From NCBI GenBank assembly GCA_949077035.1, contig CARUPR010000008.1, forward strand, positions 5,240 through 69,239: a DNA stretch of 64,000 bases. Direction: 5' to 3'. Shown here piece after piece: positions 4,259-56,353 of this stretch. Each line of letters begins with the position of its first letter. Positions within the stretch are counted from its first letter, which is position 1. Source of the stretch: an uncultured Eubacteriales bacterium (GTDB taxonomy: Bacteria; Bacillota; Clostridia; Christensenellales; UBA1242). The position numbers and the translations under genes are program-made. Below the pieces are notes generated by a model that did not search any database, had not been told where the DNA came from, and saw only the letters and a program-made list of their open reading frames with translations.

Positions 4259-4924
4259 ATGAAAAATAATATTTATGTTTCTGTTTCAACAGACCCCATC
4301 AAAGAATATCAGAAGGTGGTGGAGTATGCAAAAAGTCTGCAAGGAATTGCCGACCTTATACATTGTGATGTCAAAGATGGGGTTTTTGTTTCAAGCAAAA
4401 ATTTTGATGCCGGACTTACTCGAAATATAAATCAAAACTGCTTGACAATGCTTGATGTCCATCTTATGTGCAGTGAGCCGCTTAAGATGATTGACGACTA
4501 TCTTAAAGCGGGTGCAAATATAGTCACCATTCATTATGAAGCTTTTGAAGATAAAAATGATATTGTGCTTGCATTGAATAAGTTGAAAGATGCCAAAGCT
4601 TTGGCTGGGCTTGCAATTAAACCTGAAACTGAGATAAAGGAAATAAAGATGTTTTTGCATGATTTTGATATCATTCTTGTTTTGGGTGTTCAGCCTGGTG
4701 CAAGTGGTCAAAAATTCATTCCTTCCGCACTTGATAAAATCAAACTGCTTGATGAGATAAGAGAAAAGAATGATTTTAAATTTAAAATTGAAGTGGATGG
4801 AGGAGTAAGTGTTGATAATGCTCAAGAACTTATTTCGGCAGGTGCTGATATTTTGGTGAGTGGAAGTTTTATTTATAAAGCGCAAGATAGGCAGGCTGCC
4901 ATCAATAGTTTGAAAGGAAGATAA
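4259..4924 (+). CDS. rpe: ribulose-phosphate 3-epimerase
   Basis: Motifs HCDVKDG, LDVHLM, VQPGASGQKF and EVDGGV. Follows rsgA as in Bacillus. Confidence 0.9.
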   Translation: MKNNIYVSVSTDPIKEYQKVVEYAKSLQGIADLIHCDVKDGVFVSSKNFDAGLTRNINQNCLTMLDVHLMCSEPLKMIDDYLKAGANIVTIHYEAFEDKNDIVLALNKLKDAKALAGLAIKPETEIKEIKMFLHDFDIILVLGVQPGASGQKFIPSALDKIKLLDEIREKNDFKFKIEVDGGVSVDNAQELISAGADILVSGSFIYKAQDRQAAINSLKGR

Positions 4925-4937
4925 TGCATGCAAAATA

Positions 4938-5056
4938 GGTTGGAGGGCGCTCGGGGACGAGAGTCAACCTTTGAATGAGACATTCAAAGGTTTGTTCACG
5001 GCAGTGAACAGCTTGACGGAAGGTCAAGCACTCTCGTCCCCGTCCCCGCACCAATT
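4938..5056 (+). ncRNA. unidentified GC-rich structured RNA candidate (four-way junction)
   Basis: P1 pairs 4952-4963 (cggggacgagag) with 5031-5042 (ctctcgtccccg). Three enclosed hairpins: 4965-4994, 4995-5008 and 5011-5029. Outer ggttgg/ccaatt pairing needs G-U, which favours the + strand. G+C is far above the surrounding intergenic DNA. Confidence 0.4.
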
Positions 5057-5118
5057 TGGTAACAAACGCAAAATAGAAAAAATCAAATTCAAAAATACAA
5101 AATAAAAAAATATAAAAA

Positions 5119-5149
5119 TATCTTCAAAATTGCTTGAAGATTTTTTTTA
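5119..5149 (+). terminator. intrinsic terminator downstream of rpe and the structured element
   Basis: Stem atcttcaa/ttgaagat with a 6-nt loop, followed by T8. Confidence 0.6.
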
Positions 5150-5162
5150 AATGAGCTATAAT
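5134..5162 (+). promoter_or_regulatory. candidate sigma-A promoter of ppdK
   Basis: TTGAAG, 17-nt spacer, TATAAT. The -10 ends 30 nt upstream of the ppdK ATG. Confidence 0.45.
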
Positions 5163-5191
5163 TTAAGGGTAGATTATAAAAAGGAGAAAAT

Positions 5192-7816
5192 ATGAAACAA
5201 TTTGTTTATTTGTTTAAAGAAGCTGATGGAAAAAATAAAGCTCTCTTTGGTGGCAAAGGCGCAAACCTTGCTGAAATGACAAATCTCGGTATGCCTGTTC
5301 CTCAAGGCTTTACCATTACAACTGAGGCCTGCACTCAGTATTATAAAGACGGCAAAAAAATCAATGAATCAATTATGTCGCAAATCGAAAACAAACTTAA
5401 TGACCTTGAAAAGATGACAGGCAAGAAGTTTGGTGACAAGAAAAATCCTCTTCTTGTATCTGTTCGTTCAGGAGCTAGAGTTTCTATGCCTGGTATGATG
5501 GATACAATCCTCAACCTTGGTCTTAATGACGAAGTTGTTGAAGGTCTTGCAAAACTTACAAACAATGCAAGATTTGCTTATGACTCATATAGAAGATTTA
5601 TCCAAATGTTCTCAGATGTTGTAATGCAACAAGAAAAATCAAAATATGAAAGAATTCTTGACAAAGTTAAGGAAGAAAAGGGTGTTGAATTTGATAAAGA
5701 CCTCACCGCTGAAGACCTTAAAGAAATCGTAAATATGTTTAAAGAGCTTTACAAAAAAGCTCAGGGCGAAGAATTCCCACAAGAACCTCGTATCCAACTT
5801 ATCGAAGCTGTTAAGGCTGTATTCCGTTCTTGGGATAATGACAGAGCAAATGTCTATAGAAGAATGCATGACATCCCTTATGAATGGGGAACTGCTGTCA
5901 ATGTTCAATCAATGGTATTTGGAAACATGGGTGAAACCTCAGGAACAGGTGTTGCCTTCTCTCGTAACCCTGCAACTGGTGAAAACAAACTCTATGGTGA
6001 ATATCTTATGAATGCTCAAGGCGAAGACGTTGTTGCTGGTATCAGAACTCCACTTCCAATTTCAAGTCTTGAAAAACAAAATCCAAAGGTTTATAAAGAA
6101 TTTGCTGATATTGCAAAGAAACTTGAAAAACACAACAAAGATATGCAAGATATGGAGTTTACTATCGAAAATGGCAAACTTTATATGCTTCAAACAAGAA
6201 ATGGTAAAAGAACTGCTAAGGCAGCATTGAAAGTTGCTGTAGACCTTGTAAGCGAAGGTATGATTACAGAAAAAGAAGCTCTTATGATGCTTGACCCAAA
6301 ACAACTTGATGCTCTCTTGCACCCACAATTTGATGATGCCGCTTTGAAGAAAGCGACTCCAATCGCAGAAGCTCTTCCTGCATCACCTGGTGCAGCTTGT
6401 GGTAAAATCTATTTTACAGCTGAAAAAGCAAAAGAAATGTCTGCAACTGAAAAGGTTGTTCTCGTTCGTCTTGAAACTTCACCAGAAGATATTGAGGGTA
6501 TGGCTGTAAGTCAAGGTGTATTGACTGCTCGTGGTGGTATGACTTCTCACGCTGCCGTTGTTGCTCGTGGTATGGGAACTGCCTGCGTTGCTGGTTGCAG
6601 TGCAATTAAGTTTGCTGATGATGAAAAATCTTTCACTCTTGGCGGAAAGGTATATCATGAAGGAGATGATATCTCTTTTGATGGCTCAACTGGAAAAATC
6701 TATGATGGTATTATGGCTACAGAACCTGCTAAGATTTCAGGTGAGTTTGCTACTATTATGGAATGGGCAGACAAATATCGTGCAATGCAAGTTCGCACAA
6801 ATGCCGATAATCCAAAAGATGCAAGAAATGCATTCAATTTCGGTGCTCAAGGTGTAGGTCTTTGCAGAACAGAACATATGTTCTTTGAAGCTGACAGAAT
6901 CCCTGCGGTAAGAGAAATGATTGTTTCTTCAACTGTTGAAGAAAGAAAGAAAGCTCTTGCAAAACTTCTTCCTATGCAAAGAAAAGACTTTATCGGAATT
7001 TATAAGGCAATGGAAGGACTTCCTGTTACTATCCGTTTCCTTGACCCACCACTTCATGAGTTCTTACCTCACGAAAATAGTGAAATCAGAGCTCTCGCTG
7101 AAGAAATGGGAATCACTTTTGATAAATTAAAACAAACAGTTGCTGACCTTCACGAATTCAACCCAATGATGGGACACCGTGGACTTAGACTTGCAGTAAC
7201 TTATCCTGAAATTGCTGAAATGCAAACTCAAGCGGTTATTGAAGCTGCAATTGATGTAAACAAAGAAATGGGCTTCAAAATTGTTCCTGAAATTATGATT
7301 CCTCTTACTTGTGATTCAAAAGAATTTAAGTATGTTCGCGACATCGTTGCAAACAAGGCTGATGAAATTATCAGAGAAAATGGTGTTGAACTTAGCTATA
7401 AGATAGGAACTATGATTGAAATTCCTCGTGCTGCATTGACAGCTGATGAAGTTGCCAATAGCGCTGAATTCTTCTCATTCGGAACTAATGACCTTACTCA
7501 AATGACTTATGGATTTAGTCGTGATGACTCAAGTAAATTCCTTGATGTATATTATTCTAAGAAGATATTTGAAAGCGACCCATTTGCAAGAATCGACCAA
7601 AATGGTGTTGGCAAACTTGTTAAGATGGCAAGCGAACTTGGAAGAAAGGCAAGACCTGATATCAAACTTGGTATCTGTGGTGAACATGGTGGTGACCCAT
7701 CAAGTGTAGAATTCTGCCATAACTGCGGACTTACCTATGTATCTTGCTCTCCATTCAGAGTTCCAATTGCAAGACTTGCTGCAGCTCAAGCAAATATCAA
7801 AAATCCAAGAAGATAA
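5192..7816 (+). CDS. ppdK: pyruvate, phosphate dikinase
   Basis: 874 aa. Motifs: GGKGANLAEM, phosphohistidine GGMTSHAAVVARGMG, GLCRTEHMF, FSFGTNDLTQM, CGEHGGDP. Confidence 0.97.
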   Translation: MKQFVYLFKEADGKNKALFGGKGANLAEMTNLGMPVPQGFTITTEACTQYYKDGKKINESIMSQIENKLNDLEKMTGKKFGDKKNPLLVSVRSGARVSMPGMMDTILNLGLNDEVVEGLAKLTNNARFAYDSYRRFIQMFSDVVMQQEKSKYERILDKVKEEKGVEFDKDLTAEDLKEIVNMFKELYKKAQGEEFPQEPRIQLIEAVKAVFRSWDNDRANVYRRMHDIPYEWGTAVNVQSMVFGNMGETSGTGVAFSRNPATGENKLYGEYLMNAQGEDVVAGIRTPLPISSLEKQNPKVYKEFADIAKKLEKHNKDMQDMEFTIENGKLYMLQTRNGKRTAKAALKVAVDLVSEGMITEKEALMMLDPKQLDALLHPQFDDAALKKATPIAEALPASPGAACGKIYFTAEKAKEMSATEKVVLVRLETSPEDIEGMAVSQGVLTARGGMTSHAAVVARGMGTACVAGCSAIKFADDEKSFTLGGKVYHEGDDISFDGSTGKIYDGIMATEPAKISGEFATIMEWADKYRAMQVRTNADNPKDARNAFNFGAQGVGLCRTEHMFFEADRIPAVREMIVSSTVEERKKALAKLLPMQRKDFIGIYKAMEGLPVTIRFLDPPLHEFLPHENSEIRALAEEMGITFDKLKQTVADLHEFNPMMGHRGLRLAVTYPEIAEMQTQAVIEAAIDVNKEMGFKIVPEIMIPLTCDSKEFKYVRDIVANKADEIIRENGVELSYKIGTMIEIPRAALTADEVANSAEFFSFGTNDLTQMTYGFSRDDSSKFLDVYYSKKIFESDPFARIDQNGVGKLVKMASELGRKARPDIKLGICGEHGGDPSSVEFCHNCGLTYVSCSPFRVPIARLAAAQANIKNPRR

Positions 7817-15654: not shown

Positions 15655-16344
15655 TTATTCCAAAATATTTTCAATATCTTTGTTGTATTTCAATTCCATT
15701 TTTAACTTTTGATTTAAGATATTATCAACTGCTTTTGAAATGTTGTTTTTAAACATCCCCCAAAAAATATCTTGCCAGTTGTAATTGCAGAAATTGATAT
15801 TATTGCTGATAAGACCACTATTCAAGAGGTTGATTTCCTTGTTTTGGATAAACATATCTGAAGCATTGTATTCACCGCGTGCAAAATTATTTTTATGTCC
15901 AAAAGTCATTTGTCTGTCAGAGCCAACTTGAAAACCAATTTCAAATTCTTTCAAATATGCGATGTCATCAGGACCATATGGGTCGATATCGCAATAACAA
16001 ACTTCGTTTTTAATTGTGTTTGTAATAAGAGTAATTTCTTCATCTGGGTAAATTGATTTCAATTCATTCAACATTTCAGTAATAAGTGATTGCAAAGGAA
16101 CATTGAAATATCTGCTTTTTTTGTTTAAAATTTCATCAATTTTCTTAATTTTTGCCTCAGCTTTTTCAATTTCGCTATTTATTTCCTGCACTTTTTCAAT
16201 ATCAATAGGCTGGTTGATGTATTTTTGATTGTTAAGTTGATGACTTAAAAGGTATACTGTAATACCACAGTTGTTTTTCTGAGTAATTAATTCCTTATAT
16301 TTTTCAACTGCCTCTTCAATTTTTTGGTTTGTTTCAAATTTCAT
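15655..16344 (-). CDS. coiled-coil paralog family protein 1 of 3, unknown function
   Basis: Shares architecture and the C-terminal motif (W)Q(D/E)xFWG(I/M)FK(S/N)NI(E/S)K with the next two genes. Confidence 0.7.
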   Translation of the reverse strand: MKFETNQKIEEAVEKYKELITQKNNCGITVYLLSHQLNNQKYINQPIDIEKVQEINSEIEKAEAKIKKIDEILNKKSRYFNVPLQSLITEMLNELKSIYPDEEITLITNTIKNEVCYCDIDPYGPDDIAYLKEFEIGFQVGSDRQMTFGHKNNFARGEYNASDMFIQNKEINLLNSGLISNNINFCNYNWQDIFWGMFKNNISKAVDNILNQKLKMELKYNKDIENILE

Positions 16345-16414
16345 ATTTTACCTCTCATTAATTATTTATACTTTACCATATAAATTTGATAAATTTTATT
16401 TTTTAAATTTAATA

Positions 16415-17110
16415 TTAGTTGAATAATTCGTTTAAGTTTTCTTTATATTTTTCATCCAATGATTTCATTGCTGCTTTATGTTTTTGAGAAAGTTCTTCAA
16501 CCTCTTTTTCAATGTTGGATTTAAATATTCCCCAGAAATAATCCTGTAATTCTTGACAATCAAAGTCTTCTTTATTGTTGATAAGCCCAATTTCGATAAG
16601 ATTTATTTTTTCATCTCTAAGAATCATATCAAAAGCATTATATAAAGGGCTTTGTGTTGTCCTTTGAATTTTGAAAGTCATTTCTTTCTTGCCAACATTG
16701 ACGCCAAATTTAAATTCATTGCAATAGTAGGTGTCGCCAGGGCCATAGAAGTCATCGGCAGTTTTGAAAGATTTTAAAATTTTTGTATCAAAAATTTCAT
16801 AAACTTTTTTGTCAGGGTATTTTGTTGCCATTATCAAAGCCATATCTTTCAAAAGTTCTTTTACAGAAATGTTGAAAAAACGACTTTTCTTATCTAGCAA
16901 ATCTTCAATTTTTTTAATATCCTTAATATTTTTATTGATTTTGCTATTAAGTTCTTTAATTTCAGCATCTGTCAATTTTGTGAATCTAGCACCAGCAAGT
17001 GTATAATCTAAATGGTCTTTATTTTCTTTATAGCTGTCTAATTTGTTAAATAAATCTTTATATTTTTCAACTATATTTTCTATTTGTTGATTTTTAGATG
17101 TTTCTTTCAT
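16415..17110 (-). CDS. coiled-coil paralog family protein 2 of 3
   Basis: Start moved to the ATG at 17110 (MKETSKNQQIENIV...), which follows GAGGAA and matches the start of paralog 3. Confidence 0.7.
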   Translation of the reverse strand: MKETSKNQQIENIVEKYKDLFNKLDSYKENKDHLDYTLAGARFTKLTDAEIKELNSKINKNIKDIKKIEDLLDKKSRFFNISVKELLKDMALIMATKYPDKKVYEIFDTKILKSFKTADDFYGPGDTYYCNEFKFGVNVGKKEMTFKIQRTTQSPLYNAFDMILRDEKINLIEIGLINNKEDFDCQELQDYFWGIFKSNIEKEVEELSQKHKAAMKSLDEKYKENLNELFN

Positions 17111-17249
17111 AATTTTCCTCATATAATTTTTTATAATTTGGTTTAAAATAGTGGTGAATATTATTTTTAAATATTATTTCTAATTAAGAAATAATTTTAA
17201 TTTTATTTTTTATCGTTTAAGCGTGTGATAGATGACTTTTAGCTTTCAA

Positions 17250-17930
17250 TTATAATAATATGTCGTTTATCATTTCTTCATATTTTTTTTCTAATGATTG
17301 AATTTTTGCATTACGTTTTTCTGTAAGTTTTTTAATGTCTTTTTCAATGTTGCTCTTAAATATTCCCCAGAAATAATCTTGGTATTCTTGACTTGCAAAA
17401 TCTTCTTTATTGTTGATAAGTCCTGTTTTTAGGAGGTTTATTTTTATATCTTTAAGGATGGCATCACCAGCACCATACAGATAATCCTCCACTGTCTTTT
17501 GCACTATGAAAGTGATTTGTTTACCGTCTACTTGAACCCCAAACTCAAATTCCTTGCGATATAATTTCTGGTCATAGCTATTATAAAATTCTTCACATGA
17601 AACAGTGTTATAAATTTGACGAATTTTGCTATCTAGTTTATTTTGTGTCAAAGTTTTTGTAATAAAGTGAAGAAGTTTGCTTATAGGGACTTCAAAATAA
17701 TGGCTTTTATTTTTCAACAATTTTTCTATTTTTTCAATATTTTCAATATTTTTCTTAATTTTGTCATTAAGGTCTTTAATTTCATCCTTAGTCAAAGAAA
17801 TTAGTTTGTTGCCATCAAGCATATAATTTAAAAGGTCTTTAAGTTCTTTATAGCTGTCTAATTTATTTAAAATATCCTTATAATTTTCAACTATATTTTC
17901 TATTTGTTGATTTTTAGTTGTTTCTTTCAT
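17250..17930 (-). CDS. coiled-coil paralog family protein 3 of 3
   Basis: The N-terminus MKETTKNQQIENIVENYKD is near-identical to paralog 2 at protein and DNA level. C-terminal YFWGIFKSNIEKD motif. Confidence 0.7.
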   Translation of the reverse strand: MKETTKNQQIENIVENYKDILNKLDSYKELKDLLNYMLDGNKLISLTKDEIKDLNDKIKKNIENIEKIEKLLKNKSHYFEVPISKLLHFITKTLTQNKLDSKIRQIYNTVSCEEFYNSYDQKLYRKEFEFGVQVDGKQITFIVQKTVEDYLYGAGDAILKDIKINLLKTGLINNKEDFASQEYQDYFWGIFKSNIEKDIKKLTEKRNAKIQSLEKKYEEMINDILL

Positions 17931-18089
17931 AAATTACCCCTTATAATTTTAAATTTTCGTTTATAATATTTTACCCTATGCAAGGGTAAAAGTCAATAGC
18001 AATATTTAAATATAATAAACATTTATTTGGTAAATGAAAAATGGATTAATTTCAAATTTTTTTCTTCTGAAGTTTAATAAAGATATTAC

Positions 18090-18122
18090 AAAAAAGAGCA
18101 TATCAGATGATATGCTCTTTAA
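18090..18122 (-). terminator. intrinsic terminator (GCATATC-stem family)
   Basis: aaaaaagagcatatc...gatatgctcttt, downstream of the lipoprotein gene. Confidence 0.6.
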
Positions 18123-18144: not shown

Positions 18145-18867
18145 TTAAATTGATAAGTCCACTTTTTCAAAATTGAATGTTTGAATGGCAGGGGCATCTG
18201 TTATAACCGGAGTGGTTTCGATATCAGGTCTTGCTCCTGGCATAGCATAAATTCCCATGGTAAAAGAATTTTCGGTGATGTTTGTCAGTTTGAAATATTT
18301 TTCTGCTGCAGCCATGGTTATAATTTCCCAGCTTTCAGTTTGCTTATTAAACTCTCTTAAATATATTGTGATATGAGATGCAAATTCGTTGCTTTCAAAA
18401 TGCATATTGTCGCTATAAATGCCAATTTGCATTATGTTGTTTTTAAACATTATTCCATAATAAACATCTTCGGTTTCTTCGCTGACTGGCTTGATAGATT
18501 TGTATGTTATTGTTGCGTTTGCATCTAAAGGATAGGCTGGTATTGCTTTTATGGTGTAAGCAATTTTTAGGGTATAAATTTGGTCGGTTTGATTGTCGAT
18601 GTAGGAAAGGACCATGTTGCGAGTACCTTCTGTTTCGCTTGAAAATCCGGTTATCATTTCCTCTTCAATCGCAATATGTATTGTGTTTTTGTCTTTTGTA
18701 TACTCAATAATTCCGCCTGTTACATCAAGGTTTTCGCCAACATAATATTCGGTTTTGAAAGTTGAAATTATCTTGATACCTTCAGGCTTTCCGCCGCAAG
18801 CAAATAATGTGACCATAGAACATAATATTAGTGCAGGCAAGATTAAAAACTTTGTAAATTTTTTCAT
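18145..18867 (-). CDS. lipoprotein, unknown function
   Basis: Signal peptide MKKFTKFLILPALILCSMVTLFAC with lipobox LFAC. SD AAAGGAG. Driven by a C9-tract promoter. Confidence 0.8.
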   Translation of the reverse strand: MKKFTKFLILPALILCSMVTLFACGGKPEGIKIISTFKTEYYVGENLDVTGGIIEYTKDKNTIHIAIEEEMITGFSSETEGTRNMVLSYIDNQTDQIYTLKIAYTIKAIPAYPLDANATITYKSIKPVSEETEDVYYGIMFKNNIMQIGIYSDNMHFESNEFASHITIYLREFNKQTESWEIITMAAAEKYFKLTNITENSFTMGIYAMPGARPDIETTPVITDAPAIQTFNFEKVDLSI

Positions 18868-18886
18868 AATAACTCCTTTTATCTTT

Positions 18887-18913
18887 ATTATACTCGGGGG
18901 GGGGTAAAGTCAA
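18887..18913 (-). promoter_or_regulatory. sigma-A-type promoter with a C9 homopolymer in a 15-nt spacer (predicted phase-variable)
   Basis: Minus strand reads TTGACT-TTA-CCCCCCCCC-GAG-TATAAT. The -10 ends 19 nt upstream of the lipoprotein ATG. Confidence 0.65.
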
Positions 18914-19072
18914 GGCTTTTATTAAAAATTTACCGAAAAATTTTGTCAAACTTTGCTTTTTAGTTGGTTGACTTAAAGATTTTTATAAAATCCTTCAAGA
19001 ATTATTGTTTTCAGTCACAAAAAATGTGGCATTTTCCCAAAAACAACAATTTTAAAATTAGTTGTATCTTTA

Positions 19073-19522
19073 TTATGTATAACTAGGGTTTTCGACTTTA
19101 TCCCAGATATCCCTTACATACTCGTCTTCGATTTTGGCATTTTGGATAAAGTCATCTTTGTCTGAAAAGTAATAGATATTTTCAGGGCTCCAACCAAATT
19201 CAATTTCATCCTCATCATCGCCTCTAGATAAATAAAAATTTTTGTCTTGATATTTAAATTCCATTTCACCATAAAAATCAAAACCTTCTAAAAAATCATC
19301 AATGGATGGTTTAAATCCTTTGCCAGCTGCATAAAATTTTTTTGCTTTGTTGAAAGAAATTAAATTGCGATATATTACTTGGTCTGGATTTTCTTCACAC
19401 ATAGAATCATTGAACCAACCACAATATGGACAAGGGTTTATATCAAACTCTGAAGTCATGTAAACTTTCCGACAAACAGCACATTTTTTCTGTATATTTT
19501 TTTCTAATGGATTTATTTTCAT
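19073..19522 (-). CDS. Cys-ribbon (CPCC-like) paralog 5, putative immunity-type protein
   Basis: N-terminal CxxC...CPYCGW zinc-ribbon pattern followed by NLISxNKAKK. The C-terminus ENIYYFSDKDDFIQNAKIEDEYVRDIWDKVENPSYT is shared with its paralogs. Confidence 0.7.
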   Translation of the reverse strand: MKINPLEKNIQKKCAVCRKVYMTSEFDINPCPYCGWFNDSMCEENPDQVIYRNLISFNKAKKFYAAGKGFKPSIDDFLEGFDFYGEMEFKYQDKNFYLSRGDDEDEIEFGWSPENIYYFSDKDDFIQNAKIEDEYVRDIWDKVENPSYT

Positions 19523-19534
19523 TTTATTCTCCTT

Positions 19535-19626
19535 TTAACAATTACTTAAATTAATTCCTTTCGTATATTTTTGTCTTTCTTTTCCTTTTGGTTTTGTCCA
19601 ATCCCAATAATGGTCATGGGGGAAGT
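19535..19626 (-). pseudogene. 3' remnant of a second allele of the 104-aa His-rich gene
   Basis: Translates to FPHDHYWDWTKPKGKERQKYTKGINLSNC*. It is homologous at DNA level to 21773-21870, and no start codon or N-terminal part is present. Confidence 0.6.
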
Positions 19627-19664
19627 ATAATACTATAATTGTATAGGAGATTATGAGGTGGTTT

Positions 19665-20138
19665 TTATTGCAACCAATATCTGTCGGTTGTTTCGCTCCA
19701 AATGTCTTTTAATAGTTTACCTTCAACTTTTGCGTTGCTTTTAAATTCTTCATCATTATTAAAATAAATCATTTCTTTGGTCTGGGAGTTGTAAAGGCTT
19801 ATCTTTATAGCTTGTTTATTTTCAAACACTAGTTCAACAGCATAATAAACCCCATTGTATTCAAATTGCATTTCGCTATATCCATGTAATGCCTCTAAAA
19901 ATTCATCTAAATTGGGCTCAAAAGGTTTTCCTTCTTTGTAGAGCTGTCTTGCTTTATTTAGTGAAATTAAATTGGGATGAATTACATTATTGGGATTTAT
20001 ATCTGCAAAATGATTGTTTTTCCATTTGCAATTTTGGCAATCTCCTTGTTCATAAATATCTTTTTCTATAATTTCTCCACAAACCGAACATGGTTTTTCA
20101 AATACTTTATAATATAAATTATTTTTTTTATTTTTCAT
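19665..20138 (-). CDS. Cys-ribbon (CPCC-like) paralog 4
   Basis: CSVCG...CQNCKW ribbon, HPNLISLNKARQLYKEGKPF, and a divergent C-terminus. Confidence 0.7.
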   Translation of the reverse strand: MKNKKNNLYYKVFEKPCSVCGEIIEKDIYEQGDCQNCKWKNNHFADINPNNVIHPNLISLNKARQLYKEGKPFEPNLDEFLEALHGYSEMQFEYNGVYYAVELVFENKQAIKISLYNSQTKEMIYFNNDEEFKSNAKVEGKLLKDIWSETTDRYWLQ

Positions 20139-20230
20139 AATATTTACCTTTTAACATAAGCTTGAATTTGTTTTTTGTCCATCTAATCCTGTTTGAGTTG
20201 GCTATGTGTTTGGAATAATATTGATATTTT

Positions 20231-20695
20231 TTATGTATAACTAGGGTTTTCGACTTTATCCCAAATATCTCTTACATACTCGTTTCCGATTTTGGCATTT
20301 TGGATAAAGTCATCTTTGTCTGAAAAGTAATATATATTTTCAGGGCTCCAACCGAATTCAATTTTTGTTTGGTTTTTATCATTATCATCATAGATAAGAA
20401 AAACACAACATTCTTTTTCTTTATACCAAAATTCAACTTCGCCATAAAAATAAAGCATATTAAGGAAATCATTTAAATCTGGTCTTAAAGGTTTTCCTTC
20501 CTTAACAAGTTTTTTGGCTTTGTTTTCTGATACAACATTAGGGAAAATTATATTATCTTCATTTTCGCCATCGAAATTTGAATTATACCAACCACAATAA
20601 TCACAATCCCCATGGCCCAATTTATCATATTTTATCATTTTTCCGCAAATATTACATTTTTTGTCTATAATTTTTTCATATGGATTATTTTTCAT
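20231..20695 (-). CDS. Cys-ribbon (CPCC-like) paralog 3
   Basis: CNICG...CDYCGW ribbon. The last ~130 nt are near-identical to paralogs 1 and 5. Confidence 0.7.
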   Translation of the reverse strand: MKNNPYEKIIDKKCNICGKMIKYDKLGHGDCDYCGWYNSNFDGENEDNIIFPNVVSENKAKKLVKEGKPLRPDLNDFLNMLYFYGEVEFWYKEKECCVFLIYDDNDKNQTKIEFGWSPENIYYFSDKDDFIQNAKIGNEYVRDIWDKVENPSYT

Positions 20696-20734
20696 TTTAT
20701 TTTCCTATGAATGATAAGATTTTAATAAATTTTA

Positions 20735-21181
20735 TTATAAATAACTAGGGTTTTCGACTTTTACCCAAATATCTCTTACATACTCATTTTCAATTTTCGC
20801 ATTTGCGATAAAATCATCTTTGTTTTTAAAAAACAATGTTCCGTTTCCCCAGCACATTTCAATGCCATTATCTCCATGTCGGAATAAGCTATAGCCTATT
20901 TGGTTGTAGTCAAAACTTGTTTCTCCGTAAAATTCAAAGGCTTCAAGAAAATCATCCAATGAAGGACATAATTTTTTGTTCTGTTGATATAGCTTTTTTG
21001 CAGTATTTAGAGATATCAGGTTAGAAAAGATGACTTTATCTGGAAACTCACAATAAATTGTTCCATTATACCATCCACAATTAAAACATTCTCCTTGTTC
21101 ATAAATGTCTGCCATATATTTATTTCCACAAACAGCGCAATGCTTTTCAAATACTTTATCATAAATATTATTGTTTTTCAT
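20735..21181 (-). CDS. Cys-ribbon (CPCC-like) paralog 2
   Basis: CAVCG...CFNCGW ribbon and a related C-terminal KDDFIANAKIENEYVRDIWVKVENPSYL. Confidence 0.7.
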   Translation of the reverse strand: MKNNNIYDKVFEKHCAVCGNKYMADIYEQGECFNCGWYNGTIYCEFPDKVIFSNLISLNTAKKLYQQNKKLCPSLDDFLEAFEFYGETSFDYNQIGYSLFRHGDNGIEMCWGNGTLFFKNKDDFIANAKIENEYVRDIWVKVENPSYL

Positions 21182-21191
21182 ATTTTACTCC

Positions 21192-21250
21192 TATGAACAA
21201 AATGATGTATTGGTATATTTCCTACCATCAGAGCCATACCACCTTTGTAA
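21192..21250 (-). pseudogene. internal remnant of the His-rich gene
   Basis: Reads QRWYGSDGRKYTNTSFCS*. The segment accatcagagccataccacctttg matches 21930-21955 of the intact gene (QQRWYGPDG). Confidence 0.45.
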
Positions 21251-21297
21251 TTTAAACTTTATTTGAGTTTGCTATGTGTTTGGTATATTATTGATTT

Positions 21298-21759
21298 TTA
21301 TGTATAACTAGGGTTTTCGACTTTATCCCAGATATCTCTTACATACTCGTCTTCGATTTTGGCATTTGCGATAAAGTCATCTTTGTCTGAAAAGTAATAT
21401 ATATTTTCAGGGCTCCAACCAAATTCAATTTTTGAAATGTCACCATTATTTTTGTGCAATAAAATTACACAACATTCTTTTTCTTTATACCAAAATTCAA
21501 CTTCGCTATAAGAGTATAACATATCAAGGAAATCATTTAAATCTGGTCTTAAAGGTTTTCCTTCCTTAATAAGTTTTTTTGCTTTGTTTTTAGATACAAC
21601 ATTAGGGAAGGTTACATATTCTTCATTTTCATCGCCGAATTTATCGTTAAACCAACCACAATTTGAGCAAGCTCCATTGCCGCTGCTATCTACCAAAAGA
21701 CTTTTGTCGCAAACAGAACATTTGCTCTTTATATTTTTTTCAAATGGATTTATTTTCAT
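21298..21759 (-). CDS. Cys-ribbon (CPCC-like) paralog 1
   Basis: CSVCD...CSNCGW ribbon. Begins 14 nt after the stop of the 104-aa gene. Confidence 0.7.
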   Translation of the reverse strand: MKINPFEKNIKSKCSVCDKSLLVDSSGNGACSNCGWFNDKFGDENEEYVTFPNVVSKNKAKKLIKEGKPLRPDLNDFLDMLYSYSEVEFWYKEKECCVILLHKNNGDISKIEFGWSPENIYYFSDKDDFIANAKIEDEYVRDIWDKVENPSYT

Positions 21760-21772
21760 TTTTATCTCCTTC

Positions 21773-22087
21773 TTAGCATTTACTTAAATTTATTTTTTCA
21801 TTATTCGGTCCTTTATATTCAAGCCTTTGTTTTCCTGGTGGCTTTGTCCAATCCCAATAATGGTCGTGGGGGAAAGTATGATTATGATGTGCATTTCCAT
21901 GAGCCCAATCTCTATCCCATATTGCAAGACCATCAGGTCCATACCATCTTTGTTGAAGCAATTTTTTTGTTTTTTCATCATAGTAATCTATTCTAATATT
22001 TGGTTTTTCACTCCATCTTTCATGTATATTAGACCTATAAGGTCCAAACATATCAAATTTCCCGCCGCTTGATTTACACATTCCCAT
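21773..22087 (-). CDS. small His/Trp-rich protein (104 aa), putative toxin-type module
   Basis: Motif RWYGPDGLAIWDRDWAHGNAHHNHTFPHDHYWDW. Its ATG overlaps the stop of the upstream gene (ATAATGG), implying translational coupling. Truncated copies occur downstream. Confidence 0.6.
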   Translation of the reverse strand: MGMCKSSGGKFDMFGPYRSNIHERWSEKPNIRIDYYDEKTKKLLQQRWYGPDGLAIWDRDWAHGNAHHNHTFPHDHYWDWTKPPGKQRLEYKGPNNEKINLSKC

Positions 22088-22915: not shown

Positions 22916-23650
22916 CTATATTTCTGGATAAAGCTGGCCGGCGAGATATCTTTTTGTAAACTCTTCTAAGCCTATCTTTTTTATCAAATTTTCGCTATCG
23001 AAAGGGTCTATTGCTTTTATATTGCCTTTCATTTCTTTAAAAGGTGTGCCATAACAAATGATTGCGCTCGGTTTTATTTTTTCCATCATAATTTCATAGC
23101 CTTCCATAAATCCCTTCTTGTTGTCTTCTCTTGTGTATGTTGAAACTGCCACAACAGAGCCCTCTTCAACACCGTCACAAAAGAATTCAAAGCAATCATA
23201 AGAGCCCCATGAAATTGTTGGAATTACAAGCATCCCTTGTCTTTGCCAAAAGGCGCCGCACCAACGATTTTTGAAAACGCTATCAATCTGCCGGGCAAGG
23301 GGCATATCTTTATAGGTGCTAAACTCGGGTGTCAACAATGCATAGTATTGGTCCAGTTTTTCTAGGGCTTGTGCTGGTTTGTCATAGACAGTTTCAAAAT
23401 TCCAATCGTAGGTAAAAAAGTGGATGGATTTATTTTTGTTTTCAACATCATCATTTTTTGTTTTTAAAAAGCTTAATAATTCAATTTTGTCTAAATCAAT
23501 TTTTTGCTTTTTGATAAGTGGCATTCCATATTTGCCAGTTTTTTCAAATTCGTTTCTTACAAGTTTTTGTTTTTTATGTCGCTTTTCTTCATAATAATCA
23601 TAATCATTAGTAAAAGAAAAAAGCGAACTCAGTTGTTCGTTTTTAATCAT
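22916..23650 (-). CDS. DUF4417-like protein
   Basis: Pattern IHFFTYDWNFE...LLTPEFSTYKDMPLARQIDSVFKNRWCGAFWQRQGMLVIPTISW matches my recollection of DUF4417. First gene of the operon. Confidence 0.55.
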   Translation of the reverse strand: MIKNEQLSSLFSFTNDYDYYEEKRHKKQKLVRNEFEKTGKYGMPLIKKQKIDLDKIELLSFLKTKNDDVENKNKSIHFFTYDWNFETVYDKPAQALEKLDQYYALLTPEFSTYKDMPLARQIDSVFKNRWCGAFWQRQGMLVIPTISWGSYDCFEFFCDGVEEGSVVAVSTYTREDNKKGFMEGYEIMMEKIKPSAIICYGTPFKEMKGNIKAIDPFDSENLIKKIGLEEFTKRYLAGQLYPEI

Positions 23651-24535: not shown

Positions 24536-24871
24536 CTAAGAATTATAATCATAGGGAATTTTATTTTTTCTTTCTCCAAGTAAATTTAAAATATACCCAT
24601 CTTCAACTTTGCACCACCAATGGGGGTCATTTTTGGGAAGGTCTTGCAAGATTGATTGGTCTGAAAGTTTATTATCTTTGACCAGTTCTAAATCTTTTAC
24701 GTGAACCAATATTTCAGCATAATCGCTTCCATCAGGTCTTGAAAATACGACTTCAAATTTATTTTCTCTAAGCCAAGCAAATATTATAGTGCCGATTGCG
24801 CCCTTAAAGACGCCTTCTTTTTCATATTTTTCTTTGCTTACAGTGACTCTTACTTGGTCTAACCATTTCAT
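24536..24871 (-). CDS. small protein, DUF4926-like N-terminal half (antitoxin/immunity-like)
   Basis: The SH3-like pattern VRVTVSKEKYEKEGVFKGAIGTIIFAW...FEVVFSRPDG resembles DUF4926. 4-nt overlap with the upstream ORF. Confidence 0.45.
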   Translation of the reverse strand: MKWLDQVRVTVSKEKYEKEGVFKGAIGTIIFAWLRENKFEVVFSRPDGSDYAEILVHVKDLELVKDNKLSDQSILQDLPKNDPHWWCKVEDGYILNLLGERKNKIPYDYNS

Positions 24872-54794: not shown

Positions 54795-56024
54795 TTACCA
54801 CTCCATTTCTGCTATTTCATAAAGAGTGTTTTGATACAGATAATTTAAACCTTTTTCTTTTTGTGTATTTATTTCGTTTTCAATTTCTTTTAATCTTACA
54901 TTAAAAACATCAACCATAATGTCTGGCACTTCTTTGATATAACCATCTTCTCTGCAAAGTCTATTAAATTGATTTTTTGTTTTTATTTTTACAATTTGCA
55001 TTAAAGCTTGTCTACATTCACGATTTACAAAAACGTCAATTGGTAAATCTTCTTTTTTAATTTTTCCAGCACCATATAAAATTAATGAGCTTACCGCAAG
55101 GTCAGTTTTGAATTTTAAACTAAAAGGAACTGCATCTAATTGCTCGTCAAGTAAAGGAGCGTAATAGCTGCCAGTAGTTGCAACATAATTATTAATGATT
55201 TCTTGAGGAATTGCTTTTATTTCTTCTTTTGTTAAACCTAAAAATGTTATATCTTTACCATTTGCAACACGTTGATTGATTATTTCTTGAGGGATTGCTT
55301 TTCTTTGTTTTTCTGAAAAATGACTTGGAATATCAGTGCCATTTGCAATACCTTGATTAATTACATCTTGAGGAATTTCTTTTAGTTGTTTTTCTGTTAA
55401 GCCCAAAGAAATTAAATCTCCGCCATTTATAATGCACTGATTTATAATGTCTTGAGGGATTTTGTTGATTAATCTCTCTGATAATCTTAAAAATGATAAA
55501 TTTTTACCACTTGCAATACGCTGATAAATAAACTCTACAGGAATTGCCTCTTGTTTCTCTTGTGAAAAATTAAGTAAACTTCCACCATTTACAACATATT
55601 GATTGATTGCTTCTTGAGGAATAGCCTTTTTTTGCTCATCTAAGAGTGCGTCAAAATTCCCACCCTTTGCAATATTTTGATTGATTATTTCTTGAGGTAC
55701 TTCTTTTAATTTGTTTTGTGTTAAATTAAAAATATTTCTGCCCTTTGCAACATATTGATTGATAATATCTTGAGGAACTGCATCAATTTGTTCTTCTGAA
55801 ATACAGCCTAAAGGTCCATCATTTGCAACAAATTGATTGATAATATCTTGAGGGATGGCTTTTATTTGTTCATCAAGTAGTCCATATAAATATGCACCCT
55901 TTGCAGCACGTTTATTAATAATATCTTGAGGTAATTCTTTTAATTGGCTTGCATTTAAATTTAGAAGATATAAATCTCCACCATTTGCAATAAATTTATT
56001 AATTGTTTGTTGAGTTTCTTCCAT
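54795..56024 (-). CDS. LRR-like 26-28-aa tandem-repeat protein A with a conserved C-terminal domain
   Basis: About 11 repeats of (A/E)(I/V)PQ(D/E)IINQxxAxGxxLxxLxxxQxx. C-terminal LILYGAGKIKKEDLPIDVFVNRECR...EMEW. No signal peptide. Confidence 0.8.
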   Translation of the reverse strand: MEETQQTINKFIANGGDLYLLNLNASQLKELPQDIINKRAAKGAYLYGLLDEQIKAIPQDIINQFVANDGPLGCISEEQIDAVPQDIINQYVAKGRNIFNLTQNKLKEVPQEIINQNIAKGGNFDALLDEQKKAIPQEAINQYVVNGGSLLNFSQEKQEAIPVEFIYQRIASGKNLSFLRLSERLINKIPQDIINQCIINGGDLISLGLTEKQLKEIPQDVINQGIANGTDIPSHFSEKQRKAIPQEIINQRVANGKDITFLGLTKEEIKAIPQEIINNYVATTGSYYAPLLDEQLDAVPFSLKFKTDLAVSSLILYGAGKIKKEDLPIDVFVNRECRQALMQIVKIKTKNQFNRLCREDGYIKEVPDIMVDVFNVRLKEIENEINTQKEKGLNYLYQNTLYEIAEMEW

Positions 56025-56062
56025 ATTCTCACCCTCCTTTTTTTAAATTACTTCCTATCTTA

Positions 56063-56090
56063 ATTATACTCGGGGGGGGGTAATTGTCAA
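56063..56090 (-). promoter_or_regulatory. sigma-A-type promoter with a C9 homopolymer in a 16-nt spacer (predicted phase-variable)
   Basis: Minus strand reads TTGACA-ATTA-CCCCCCCCC-GAG-TATAAT, about 38 nt upstream of the ATG at 56024. Confidence 0.65.
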
Positions 56091-56286
56091 CCTTTATTTT
56101 CAAAATAATAAATTATCTGATTTTTTAGTAGTTTGTTTTTTAAAAATGATTTTTATAAACAAAATTTATTGATAAAAAAGCACTCTTACTTCTTTCTTGC
56201 GTCAAAGAGAGCTTTTTTTGCTTTAATAAAATTAAAAAAAGCACCTTTCTTGCATCTCTAAAAACACTTGTTTTAGTTTGTGTCAC

Positions 56287-56317
56287 AAAAAAACAGCAAC
56301 AATTGTTGCTGTTTTTT
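56287..56317 (-). terminator. intrinsic terminator after micro-ORF 2
   Basis: Perfect 20-nt palindrome acagcaacaattgttgctgt flanked by an A-run and a T-run. Confidence 0.65.
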
Positions 56318-56353
56318 GATTGAAATTTTTATATGAAATATTAAATTTTGACA

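Follow-up and report, generated by a model that had tools for sequence, protein, structure and literature searches.

The window analysed here, a stretch of DNA taken at its full length of 64 kb, carries on its minus strand a lipoprotein gene headed by a promoter, P1, which a direct reading gives as TTGACT-TTA-CCCCCCCCC-GAG-TATAAT from 18913 to 18887, with a spacer of 15 nt. Re-reading of the sequence bore out what the sequence-only reading had described at 18887-18913, TTGACT-TTA-C9-GAG-TATAAT on the minus strand with a 15-nt spacer, and likewise its placing of the promoter next to a lipoprotein gene, whose SD sequence AAGGAG, ATG and LFAC lipobox were all located (Table 1). The A/T-rich block that abuts the -35 hexamer resembles an UP element. 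Transcription normally starts at the position of the T-A that follows the -10 box, and the start of P1 would by its sequence be the A at 18880, 7 nt past that box.

The product encoded behind P1 begins with MKKFTKFLILPALILCSMVTLFAC, followed by GG, and has Cys24 in an L-x-A-C lipobox that is invariant in an alignment of 4 homologues; on sequence it is a lipoprotein. An Ig-like Big_3 domain was detected (Pfam E=1.5e-5). The AlphaFold model is confident (pLDDT 81) and has two domains, of which the C-terminal one is an 8-strand beta-barrel. A fold search with this model gave weak matches with E values of at least 0.004, to Bacteroides surface proteins and the lipocalin-like Tp0751, and no fold match below E=0.004. 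The lipoprotein unit is monocistronic, because an intrinsic terminator at 18120-18093 closes it.

Table 1. Positions of the three promoters, P1 to P3, and of the features that belong to them
Feature	Position	Strand	Remarks
A/T-rich block aaatttttaataaaagcc	18914..18940	-	abuts -35 box of P1; matches the family-wide T-run/A-run block
P1 -35 hexamer TTGACT	18908..18913	-	
P1 C9 homopolymer	18896..18904	-	within spacer TTA-C9-GAG at 18893-18907
P1 -10 hexamer TATAAT	18887..18892	-	GAG before it at 18893-18895; GAGTATAAT at 18887-18895
Purine-rich AAAGATA	18880..18886	-	downstream of P1 -10 box; as in the family profile
P1 SD AAGGAG	18873-18878	-	ATG at 18867
P1 cargo, 240-aa lipoprotein	18145..18867	-	signal peptide, lipobox LFAC, Big_3, C-terminal barrel
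Intrinsic terminator of lipoprotein unit	18093..18120	-	12-bp stem, then T run
P2 TTGACA-ATTA-C9-GAG-TATAAT	56063..56090	-	spacer 16 nt; C9 at 56072-56080
P2 cargo, 409 aa	54795..56024	-	repeats of about 33 aa (IPQDIINQ...); between ftsW and murA
P3 TTGACA-ATT-C9-GAG-TATAAT	57557..57583	-	spacer 15 nt; C9 at 57566-57574
P3 cargo, 352 aa	56462..57520	-	paralogue of P2 cargo, 39% identity

Other genes flank the lipoprotein unit. Downstream of it are three tandem paralogous orphan genes (15655-17930, minus strand; 229, 235 and 226 aa), at least the first of which has its own promoter with a 17-nt spacer at 17996-17968. Five paralogues of 148-157 aa stand in tandem at 19073-22087 (minus strand), all of them with a Cys_rich_CPCC motif at the N-terminus, and a 104-aa His/Trp-rich ORF follows them; DUF4417 (22916-23650) and DUF4926 (24536-24871) proteins are encoded near these paralogues. 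To judge from its gene content, the region just upstream of P1 looks like an island of immunity-type genes.

Two further promoters of this kind, P2 and P3, precede paralogous repeat-protein genes within the cell-division cluster, with ftsW on one side and a TM2-domain gene/murA on the other. Neither a signal peptide nor a Pfam family was found in the P2 product, and the ATG at 57520 is the likely start of the P3 product. P1, P2 and P3 have in common TTGAC-W-W-T...C9-GAGTATAAT-W-AAGATA and little besides. That P1 shares its downstream flank with both dcw copies, as had been claimed, proved correct; all three run on as [A/T]AAGATA. In each of them 11-12 of the 12 hexamer positions match TTGACA/TATAAT, and an SD sequence and start codon follow 19-40 nt downstream. 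Their spacers, of 15 nt in P1 and P3 and 16 nt in P2, depart from the 17±1 nt of sigma-A promoters, and C9 fills 9 of the 15 or 16 positions, in a host genome of 32% GC. Promoters nearby in the window have 17-nt spacers (TTGACT-17-TAAAAT at 17996 and TTGACG-17-TATAAT at 58278). Rfam and tRNA scans of the window gave no match and thus no known RNA element at the promoters. The repeat-protein family (54795-57520, minus strand, in the window; L143-L150 among the other loci, which carry L numbers throughout) is found at varied loci in relatives, for example after rplA, and there usually has a 32-35-aa ORF next downstream.

Apart from the tracts of P1, P2 and P3, each exactly 9 long, the window has no C/G run that exceeds 5. 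Runs of 5 occurred 12 times (13 expected), runs of 6-8 not at all, and runs of at least 9 three times (0.012 expected). Words of C7 or more were confined to the three promoter sites, where they gave 9 overlapping matches (1.0 expected), a number reached in 0 of 100 shuffles, and GAGTATAAT occurred four times (0.5 expected). Chance resemblance is hard to reconcile with an expectation of 0.012 when three such runs are seen, all within a common 27-28-nt context. An assembly artefact has in its favour that homopolymers are error-prone in sequencing generally, and nothing further. The species of the window is rare, with two contigs that both come from one sample, but an independent Logan assembly from that same sample has an identical P1 sequence, and the motif was recovered in many independent assemblies across projects. 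Chance or artefact is therefore effectively refuted as an account of the three C9 promoters.

The promoter family in other genomes

We scanned 185,579 species, one genome each, with the pattern TTGAC-N3-5-C7-N0-7-GAGTATAAT, which left tract length (7-14) and spacer length (12-21) free and required TTGAC and GAGTATAAT, so that the conservation of these two parts is partly built in. Among the 48 loci found, about three quarters lie in low-GC (29-41%) MAGs labelled uncultured Clostridia, Eubacteriales or Firmicutes, and these low-GC loci come from mouse, rabbit, goat and other guts. The sequence-only reading was to be given up if the genomes held no further copies and the tract was fixed in length; the family motif was in fact found in 18 other low-GC species-level genomes, many of them with 2-4 copies, and the tract is not of strictly constant length. 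The window is syntenic with L006 (72-75% nucleotide identity) and L040 (80%). Family genes have their SD sequence 12-75 nt downstream of the promoter.

A family profile was built from 37 non-redundant promoters, many of which are probably related by descent, so that they cannot be counted as independent events. The tract is C9 in 28 of them, C8 in 4, C10 and C7 in 2 each and C11 in 1, and the spacer measures 15 nt in 24 and 16 nt in 8. On the 5' side of the -35 hexamer, T predominates at -15 to -11 (57-89%), A at -9 to -5 (76-86%) and C at -1 (84%); on the 3' side of the -10 box, five purines are followed by T (70%) at +6 and A (73%) at +7. The E. coli UP-element consensus resembles the upstream block of these promoters. 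Given such an UP-like block, the family would be near-consensus in all its parts except the spacer. There is no TG extended -10 motif in family promoters. Tract promoters encountered unselected in flanking DNA vary around the -10 box (GATA-TATAAT, GCTT-TATAAT, G9-TAAAAT).

A looser metagenome scan (C5 or more) returned almost only ordinary promoters with 16-18-nt spacers and was used as a control; it added three members to the family (L091, L121 and L123). The 48 control cores, with the same hexamers and C5-6, have spacers of 16 nt (n=15), 17 nt (n=18) and 18 nt (n=6), with the mode at 17. Family and control spacers differ (Mann-Whitney p=6e-9), and lengths of 17-18 nt occur in 1 of 37 family promoters and in 24 of 48 controls. 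Tract promoters with C11-C14 or G9 in high-GC and other relatives (the CAYOSS MAG, L141, and L040 at 7973) have spacers of 19-21 nt. Tract promoters thus avoid 17-18 nt from either side. In L006 the tract is reversed, TTGACT-TTTTTC-G9-TAAAAT, and the spacer is likewise 15 nt; a G9 on the sense strand at this spacing argues against strand-specific sequence recognition.

Homologues of the lipoprotein and of the repeat proteins were also examined for variation of the tract; most of them have ordinary tract-free promoters. Repeat-protein homologues in other species have 17-nt spacers without a tract, there is no tract upstream of the lipoprotein homologue P0002, and L141 is the sole homologue locus with tracts (C11 and C12). 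In a scan of viral contigs the one match was an ordinary C7 promoter with a 17-nt spacer, and the promoter module is not phage-associated.

Other readings of the promoter were rejected by inspection or comparison. An alternative hexamer 2 nt away, which would restore 17 nt, is not present, as no shifted hexamer agrees at more than 3 of 6 positions and the key bases are missing. The motifs of SigI-like or other alternative-sigma promoters do not match. A CsoR/RcnR-type operator, in which AT-rich inverted repeats flank a G/C tract, does not fit, since TATACTC and ATTTGTC (or TAAAGTC), on either side of the tract, form no such repeats.

Several additional observations were made in the scans. L002, L026 and L032 are tract promoters of the form TTGACAAG-C7/C9...GAGTATAAT in a MAG of about 50% GC labelled candidate division WOR-3; L026 and L032 precede the same type of gene with different tracts, C7T and C9G. 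These WOR-3-labelled copies may reflect mis-binning or an independent occurrence. In the conserved leader of L003 (~1140), L007, L009 and L043, TGTGGATAA, which is complementary to a consensus DnaA box, lies 4-6 nt past the -10 box. In L147/L148, about 90 nt upstream of the gene at 5001/639, a 17-nt spacer contains (GCCA)3 in TTGACA-aggccagccagccaggg-TATACT, possibly another repeat-tuned spacer.

The cargo of the family falls into about 30 unrelated gene families, mostly orphan. A Pfam scan of 23 cargo proteins (20 from relatives and 3 from the window) left 19 without a family above threshold. From the relatives, 17 of 20 had no match, the exceptions being a DUF4116 repeat protein, a camelysin/TasA-like secreted protein and a fusion of sigma region 4 with an alpha-CTD; from the window, the lipoprotein alone reached the threshold. 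No housekeeping gene was found among the cargo scanned. Such mostly family-less, non-housekeeping cargo is as expected for contingency genes. The suggestion that a switched surface lipoprotein serves immune or phage evasion found no support: these 19 of 23 proteins are Pfam-less, several cargo proteins look, to judge from their sequences, cytoplasmic or like small membrane proteins and not like surface antigens, and close homologues of the lipoprotein and the repeat proteins elsewhere use ordinary promoters.

The fusion protein, of 230 aa, is the cargo of the promoter at 139-165 of L022 and joins sigma-70 region 4 (E=1e-5) to an RNA polymerase alpha C-terminal domain (E=8e-18). Sigma region 4 reads the -35 box and the alpha C-terminal domain reads the UP element. 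From its domains, this protein could be a regulator of such promoters. The window encodes no homologue of it or of any other cargo of the relatives.

Cassette junctions and tract length

Pairwise comparisons show the promoter to be a recombination junction. L003 and L009 represent one locus in two species, in which the promoter and a 42-nt leader are kept and the coding sequences are unrelated from the start codon. In L014 and L048, 1.36 kb of upstream DNA plus the promoter is 94.6% identical, and the cargo differs from about 17 nt past the -10 box. The converse is found in L011 and L039, whose promoter and cargo are near-identical (96.7% over 791 nt, with the first 150 nt from the -35 box identical) and which are unalignable from about 45 nt upstream of the -35 box, with only a diverged (78%) syntenic flank beyond. 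L151 joins the 125-aa cargo of L011/L039 to the upstream half of the L024 promoter, the junction lying in the spacer (TTGACAAT-C9). Finally, L006 has a 3.1-kb insertion, headed by a C9 cassette, at a position (4924-5192) that is unoccupied in the window. A portable promoter module, as the sequence-only reading had it, thus stood up more strongly than proposed, with one promoter before different cargo and one cargo behind different upstream DNA. The cassettes carry their own promoter and terminator, which is unlike the promoterless cassettes of integrons, and no integrase domain was found in the neighbouring proteins scanned. The copy at 1480-1515 of L123 has a decayed tract in its spacer (AAAT-C6TC) and another C9, uninterrupted, that abuts the -35 box on its 5' side; recombination seems to have displaced either the tract or the upstream half.

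In L006 as well as in L040, the pyruvate phosphate dikinase gene is closely preceded by a tract promoter and a small membrane protein gene. A separate feature of this region is a GC-rich, cloverleaf-like element between the rpe-like and pyruvate phosphate dikinase genes, at 4936-5062 (plus strand) of the window and 6995-7075 of L006. Its form in the window comprises three hairpins and, as closing stem, GACGAGAGU/ACUCUCGUC (MFE -71.3 kcal/mol, z -9.5); the L006 counterpart (z -8.0) retains all three hairpins with different sequences. The element had no Rfam match. In L006 it is directly followed by five tandem copies of CCGATCCTACCAACCAAAC (7078-7165).

Tract length differs between alleles at some loci. 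Among 10 independent assemblies of the small-membrane-protein cassette, 8 have C9 and 2 have C8, and among those of the 125-aa cassette, 6 have C9 and 3 have C8; two C8 contigs have a coverage of about 2.5-3x, at which homopolymer error is possible, and a 120-kb contig confirms C8 in one series. The tract is the sole difference between L168 and L162 in 1762 nt, and L162 is matched at 100% identity by six further assemblies over 1.3-2.7 kb. Between L029 and L038 the one difference is at the edge of the tract, the flanks being identical. Five CAYOSS copies have tracts of C12, C12, C12, C13 and C14.

Other comparisons point to stability. The C8 allele of the 125-aa cassette, seen in three unrelated projects, always comes with an A>G change three bases ahead of the -35 box; this perfect linkage to a SNP means that the allele is passed on stably rather than switched rapidly. 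The tract is unchanged in 4 of 7 close ortholog pairs, and L016 and L024 have retained C9 and the 15-nt spacer despite about 15% divergence of the flanks. Interrupted tracts, C8A in L121, C6TC in L123 and C7T in L038, all still give a 15-nt spacer, which suggests selection on the spacing itself, independent of mutability. Of the phase variation put forward in the sequence-only reading, variability of the tract was supported in part: C8 and C9 alleles occur at the same locus, but the combination of C9 and 15 nt is strongly conserved and a SNP stably accompanies one C8 allele. On this sequence evidence, in which its direct support is limited, variability of the tract is plausible.

The same genomes also have coding tracts of 9, G9/C9 at 4471-4479 of L024 and 3440-3448 of L027. 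In one gene, for a 968-aa surface protein with Flg_new (Listeria-Bacteroides) and Bsp-like repeats, a G9 that encodes GGG comes right behind the signal peptide, and the second tract lies in a 240-aa short-chain dehydrogenase. A homopolymer just after a signal peptide is the classic layout of a frameshift switch. Both coding tracts are candidate frameshift switches. As they too are 9 long, a length of 9 looks like a property of the slippage system rather than of promoter geometry.

Proposed spacer tuning and its alternatives

The reading that we favour, with a confidence slightly better than even, is that P1 belongs to a clade-wide family of sigma-A promoters that are prone to slippage and whose spacer is kept near the shortest workable length. 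The parts of such a promoter are an upstream block rich in A/T, cTTGACA, TATAAT and a run of purines that closes with TA at the likely start, and a G:C homopolymer, usually of 9 bp, makes up most of a spacer of 15 nt in place of the usual 17. A tract of this kind is prone to replication slippage. With consensus hexamers and random spacers in E. coli, expression was high at 15-19 bp and dropped below 15 (PMC8695583), a rule derived from that organism and not from Clostridia. Because 15 nt borders the range that still allows good transcription from consensus hexamers, three states can be inferred. C9 with 15 nt would be an expressed state close to the shortest usable spacer, loss of one base (C8, spacer 14) would cause a sharp drop in expression, and a gain (C10 or C11) would raise it; the change from 15 to 14 is the only one actually seen within a species. 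The outcome would be heritable, reversible variation, at the population level, in expression of the gene behind the promoter. Relatives with longer tracts would sit at the upper edge, with 19-21 nt.

Slippage of this kind would account for the odd conserved spacer, for interrupted tracts that keep 15 nt and for the tract being kept pure. Each unit is a self-contained cassette of promoter, short leader, one gene and terminator, and the conserved promoter of about 28 bp doubles as a crossover point at which cargo and upstream contexts are exchanged within and between species. That changes in length alter transcription, that they are frequent and reversible, and that they are the selected function, we infer from the sequences compared. 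The wider proposal, in which uncultured gut Clostridia would possess an integrase-free cassette system with the C9 core as both an edge-of-range switch and a homology handle for the exchange of orphan genes among loci and species, is unlikely as a whole; in such a system the edge position (15 nt, or 19-21 nt with longer tracts) would give a one-base slip its largest effect.

The uniformity of the tract, C9 in 28 of 37 promoters and far more constant than in classical contingency promoters, speaks against the slippage reading. In its main rival, which we hold to be rather unlikely, the 9-bp G:C tract at 15-nt spacing would be a fixed cis-element, a constant structural or protein-binding feature in which length changes are merely deleterious mutations. 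It could be a rigid A-like tract that confers dependence on negative supercoiling, or the site of a clade-specific factor for an accessory regulon. Conservation of C9 and 15 nt over 18 species while the flanks diverge speaks for such an element, as do the interrupted tracts that hold 15 nt and the C8 allele with its stable SNP linkage; GC-rich spacers need negative supercoiling in E. coli (PMC8695583), and the fusion protein of L022 could bind the conserved upstream half. A fixed element is harder to square with a sense strand that carries either C9 or G9, with relatives that have C11-C14 and spacers of 19-21 nt, and with coding tracts of the same length in the same genomes. A protein-binding site in particular would have to do with flanks that are not inverted repeats, unlike those of known G-tract operators, with no candidate binding factor found in the window, and with a cargo set lacking the functional coherence that would suggest a regulon. 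The 28-bp core might instead be selected mainly as shared homology for the swapping of cassettes among loci and species through homologous recombination, the tract being kept as a part of it. The L003/L009, L014/L048, L011/L039 and L151 junctions and the 3.1-kb insertion of L006 favour this, but homology needs no homopolymer, no consensus -35 and -10 boxes and no fixed distance to the SD sequence, and the junctions fall at several points (-45, inside the spacer, +17 and the start codon) rather than at a single site. As the main reason for the core a recombination handle is quite unlikely, and it is compatible with the slippage-prone promoter that we favour.

Comparison with known promoter switches

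Repeat-driven promoter switching is textbook knowledge for a few Gram-negative mucosal pathogens and for mycoplasmas. In Haemophilus influenzae hifA/B, TA repeats lie in the spacer between the -35 and -10 boxes, and in Mycoplasma hyorhinis vlp a poly-A tract lies there; in vlp, a whole family of lipoprotein genes is under promoters of this one type, and for both hif and vlp there is experimental proof of switching. The family described here is like these in having a simple repeat in the spacer and differs in the repeat unit and in its cargo, which in hif and vlp consists of paralogous surface proteins.

In Bordetella, a poly-C promoter is common to the unlinked genes fim2, fim3 and fimX, and its tract length influences transcription (PMC1891110). 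As in that system, the poly-C lies inside the promoter upstream of the -10 box, the element serves several unlinked genes, and strains differ by single C residues (PMC1891110). The fim tracts, however, are longer and more variable (7-20 C), whereas the length here is nearly always 9. The fim promoters are BvgA-dependent, have a 'fim box' and express paralogous fimbrial subunits, in contrast to the consensus sigma-A boxes and unrelated cargo of the present family; with a -35 box that is already a consensus sigma-A hexamer, this family does not call for an activator a priori. The Bordetella promoters and this family of gut Gram-positive anaerobes are not homologous in sequence, and the analogy extends to mechanism and no further.

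Neisseria meningitidis opc (poly-C) and porA (poly-G) have a G:C homopolymer between the -35 and -10 boxes (cited in PMC5084427) and share with our family its position in the spacer. The common Neisseria alleles lie at or next to the 17-nt optimum and vary widely among isolates, whereas the spacer here is 2 nt short, nearly invariant and part of a multi-copy module. Tract length in opc and porA reportedly sets the spacing and hence gives graded expression; the papers on them, Sarkari 1994 and Tauseef 2013, are among the references of PMC5084427.

Should the tract tune expression, these promoters would mark the contingency gene set of a whole uncultured clade in a form readable from metagenomes, with members that are almost all proteins without known function. 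The near-fixed design of C9 and 15 nt would also be a natural test of whether switches evolve where one slip has the largest effect, and the junctions at which cargo is exchanged point to a simple route by which accessory genes could move along with the signal that expresses them. Our literature search found no description of a conserved multi-copy, repeat-switched promoter module in gut Firmicutes. With ordinary sigma-A/sigma-70 UP-element promoters the family shares TTGACA/TATAAT, the A/T-rich upstream block and a purine start about 7 nt past the -10 box; unlike them it has a 15-nt spacer (against 17±1) and a G:C homopolymer in that spacer in a genome of low GC content. It is set apart from the known systems by its host lineage, its consensus hexamers with no sign that they depend on an activator, its near-fixed tract and sub-optimal spacer, its unrelated cargo and its role as a junction.
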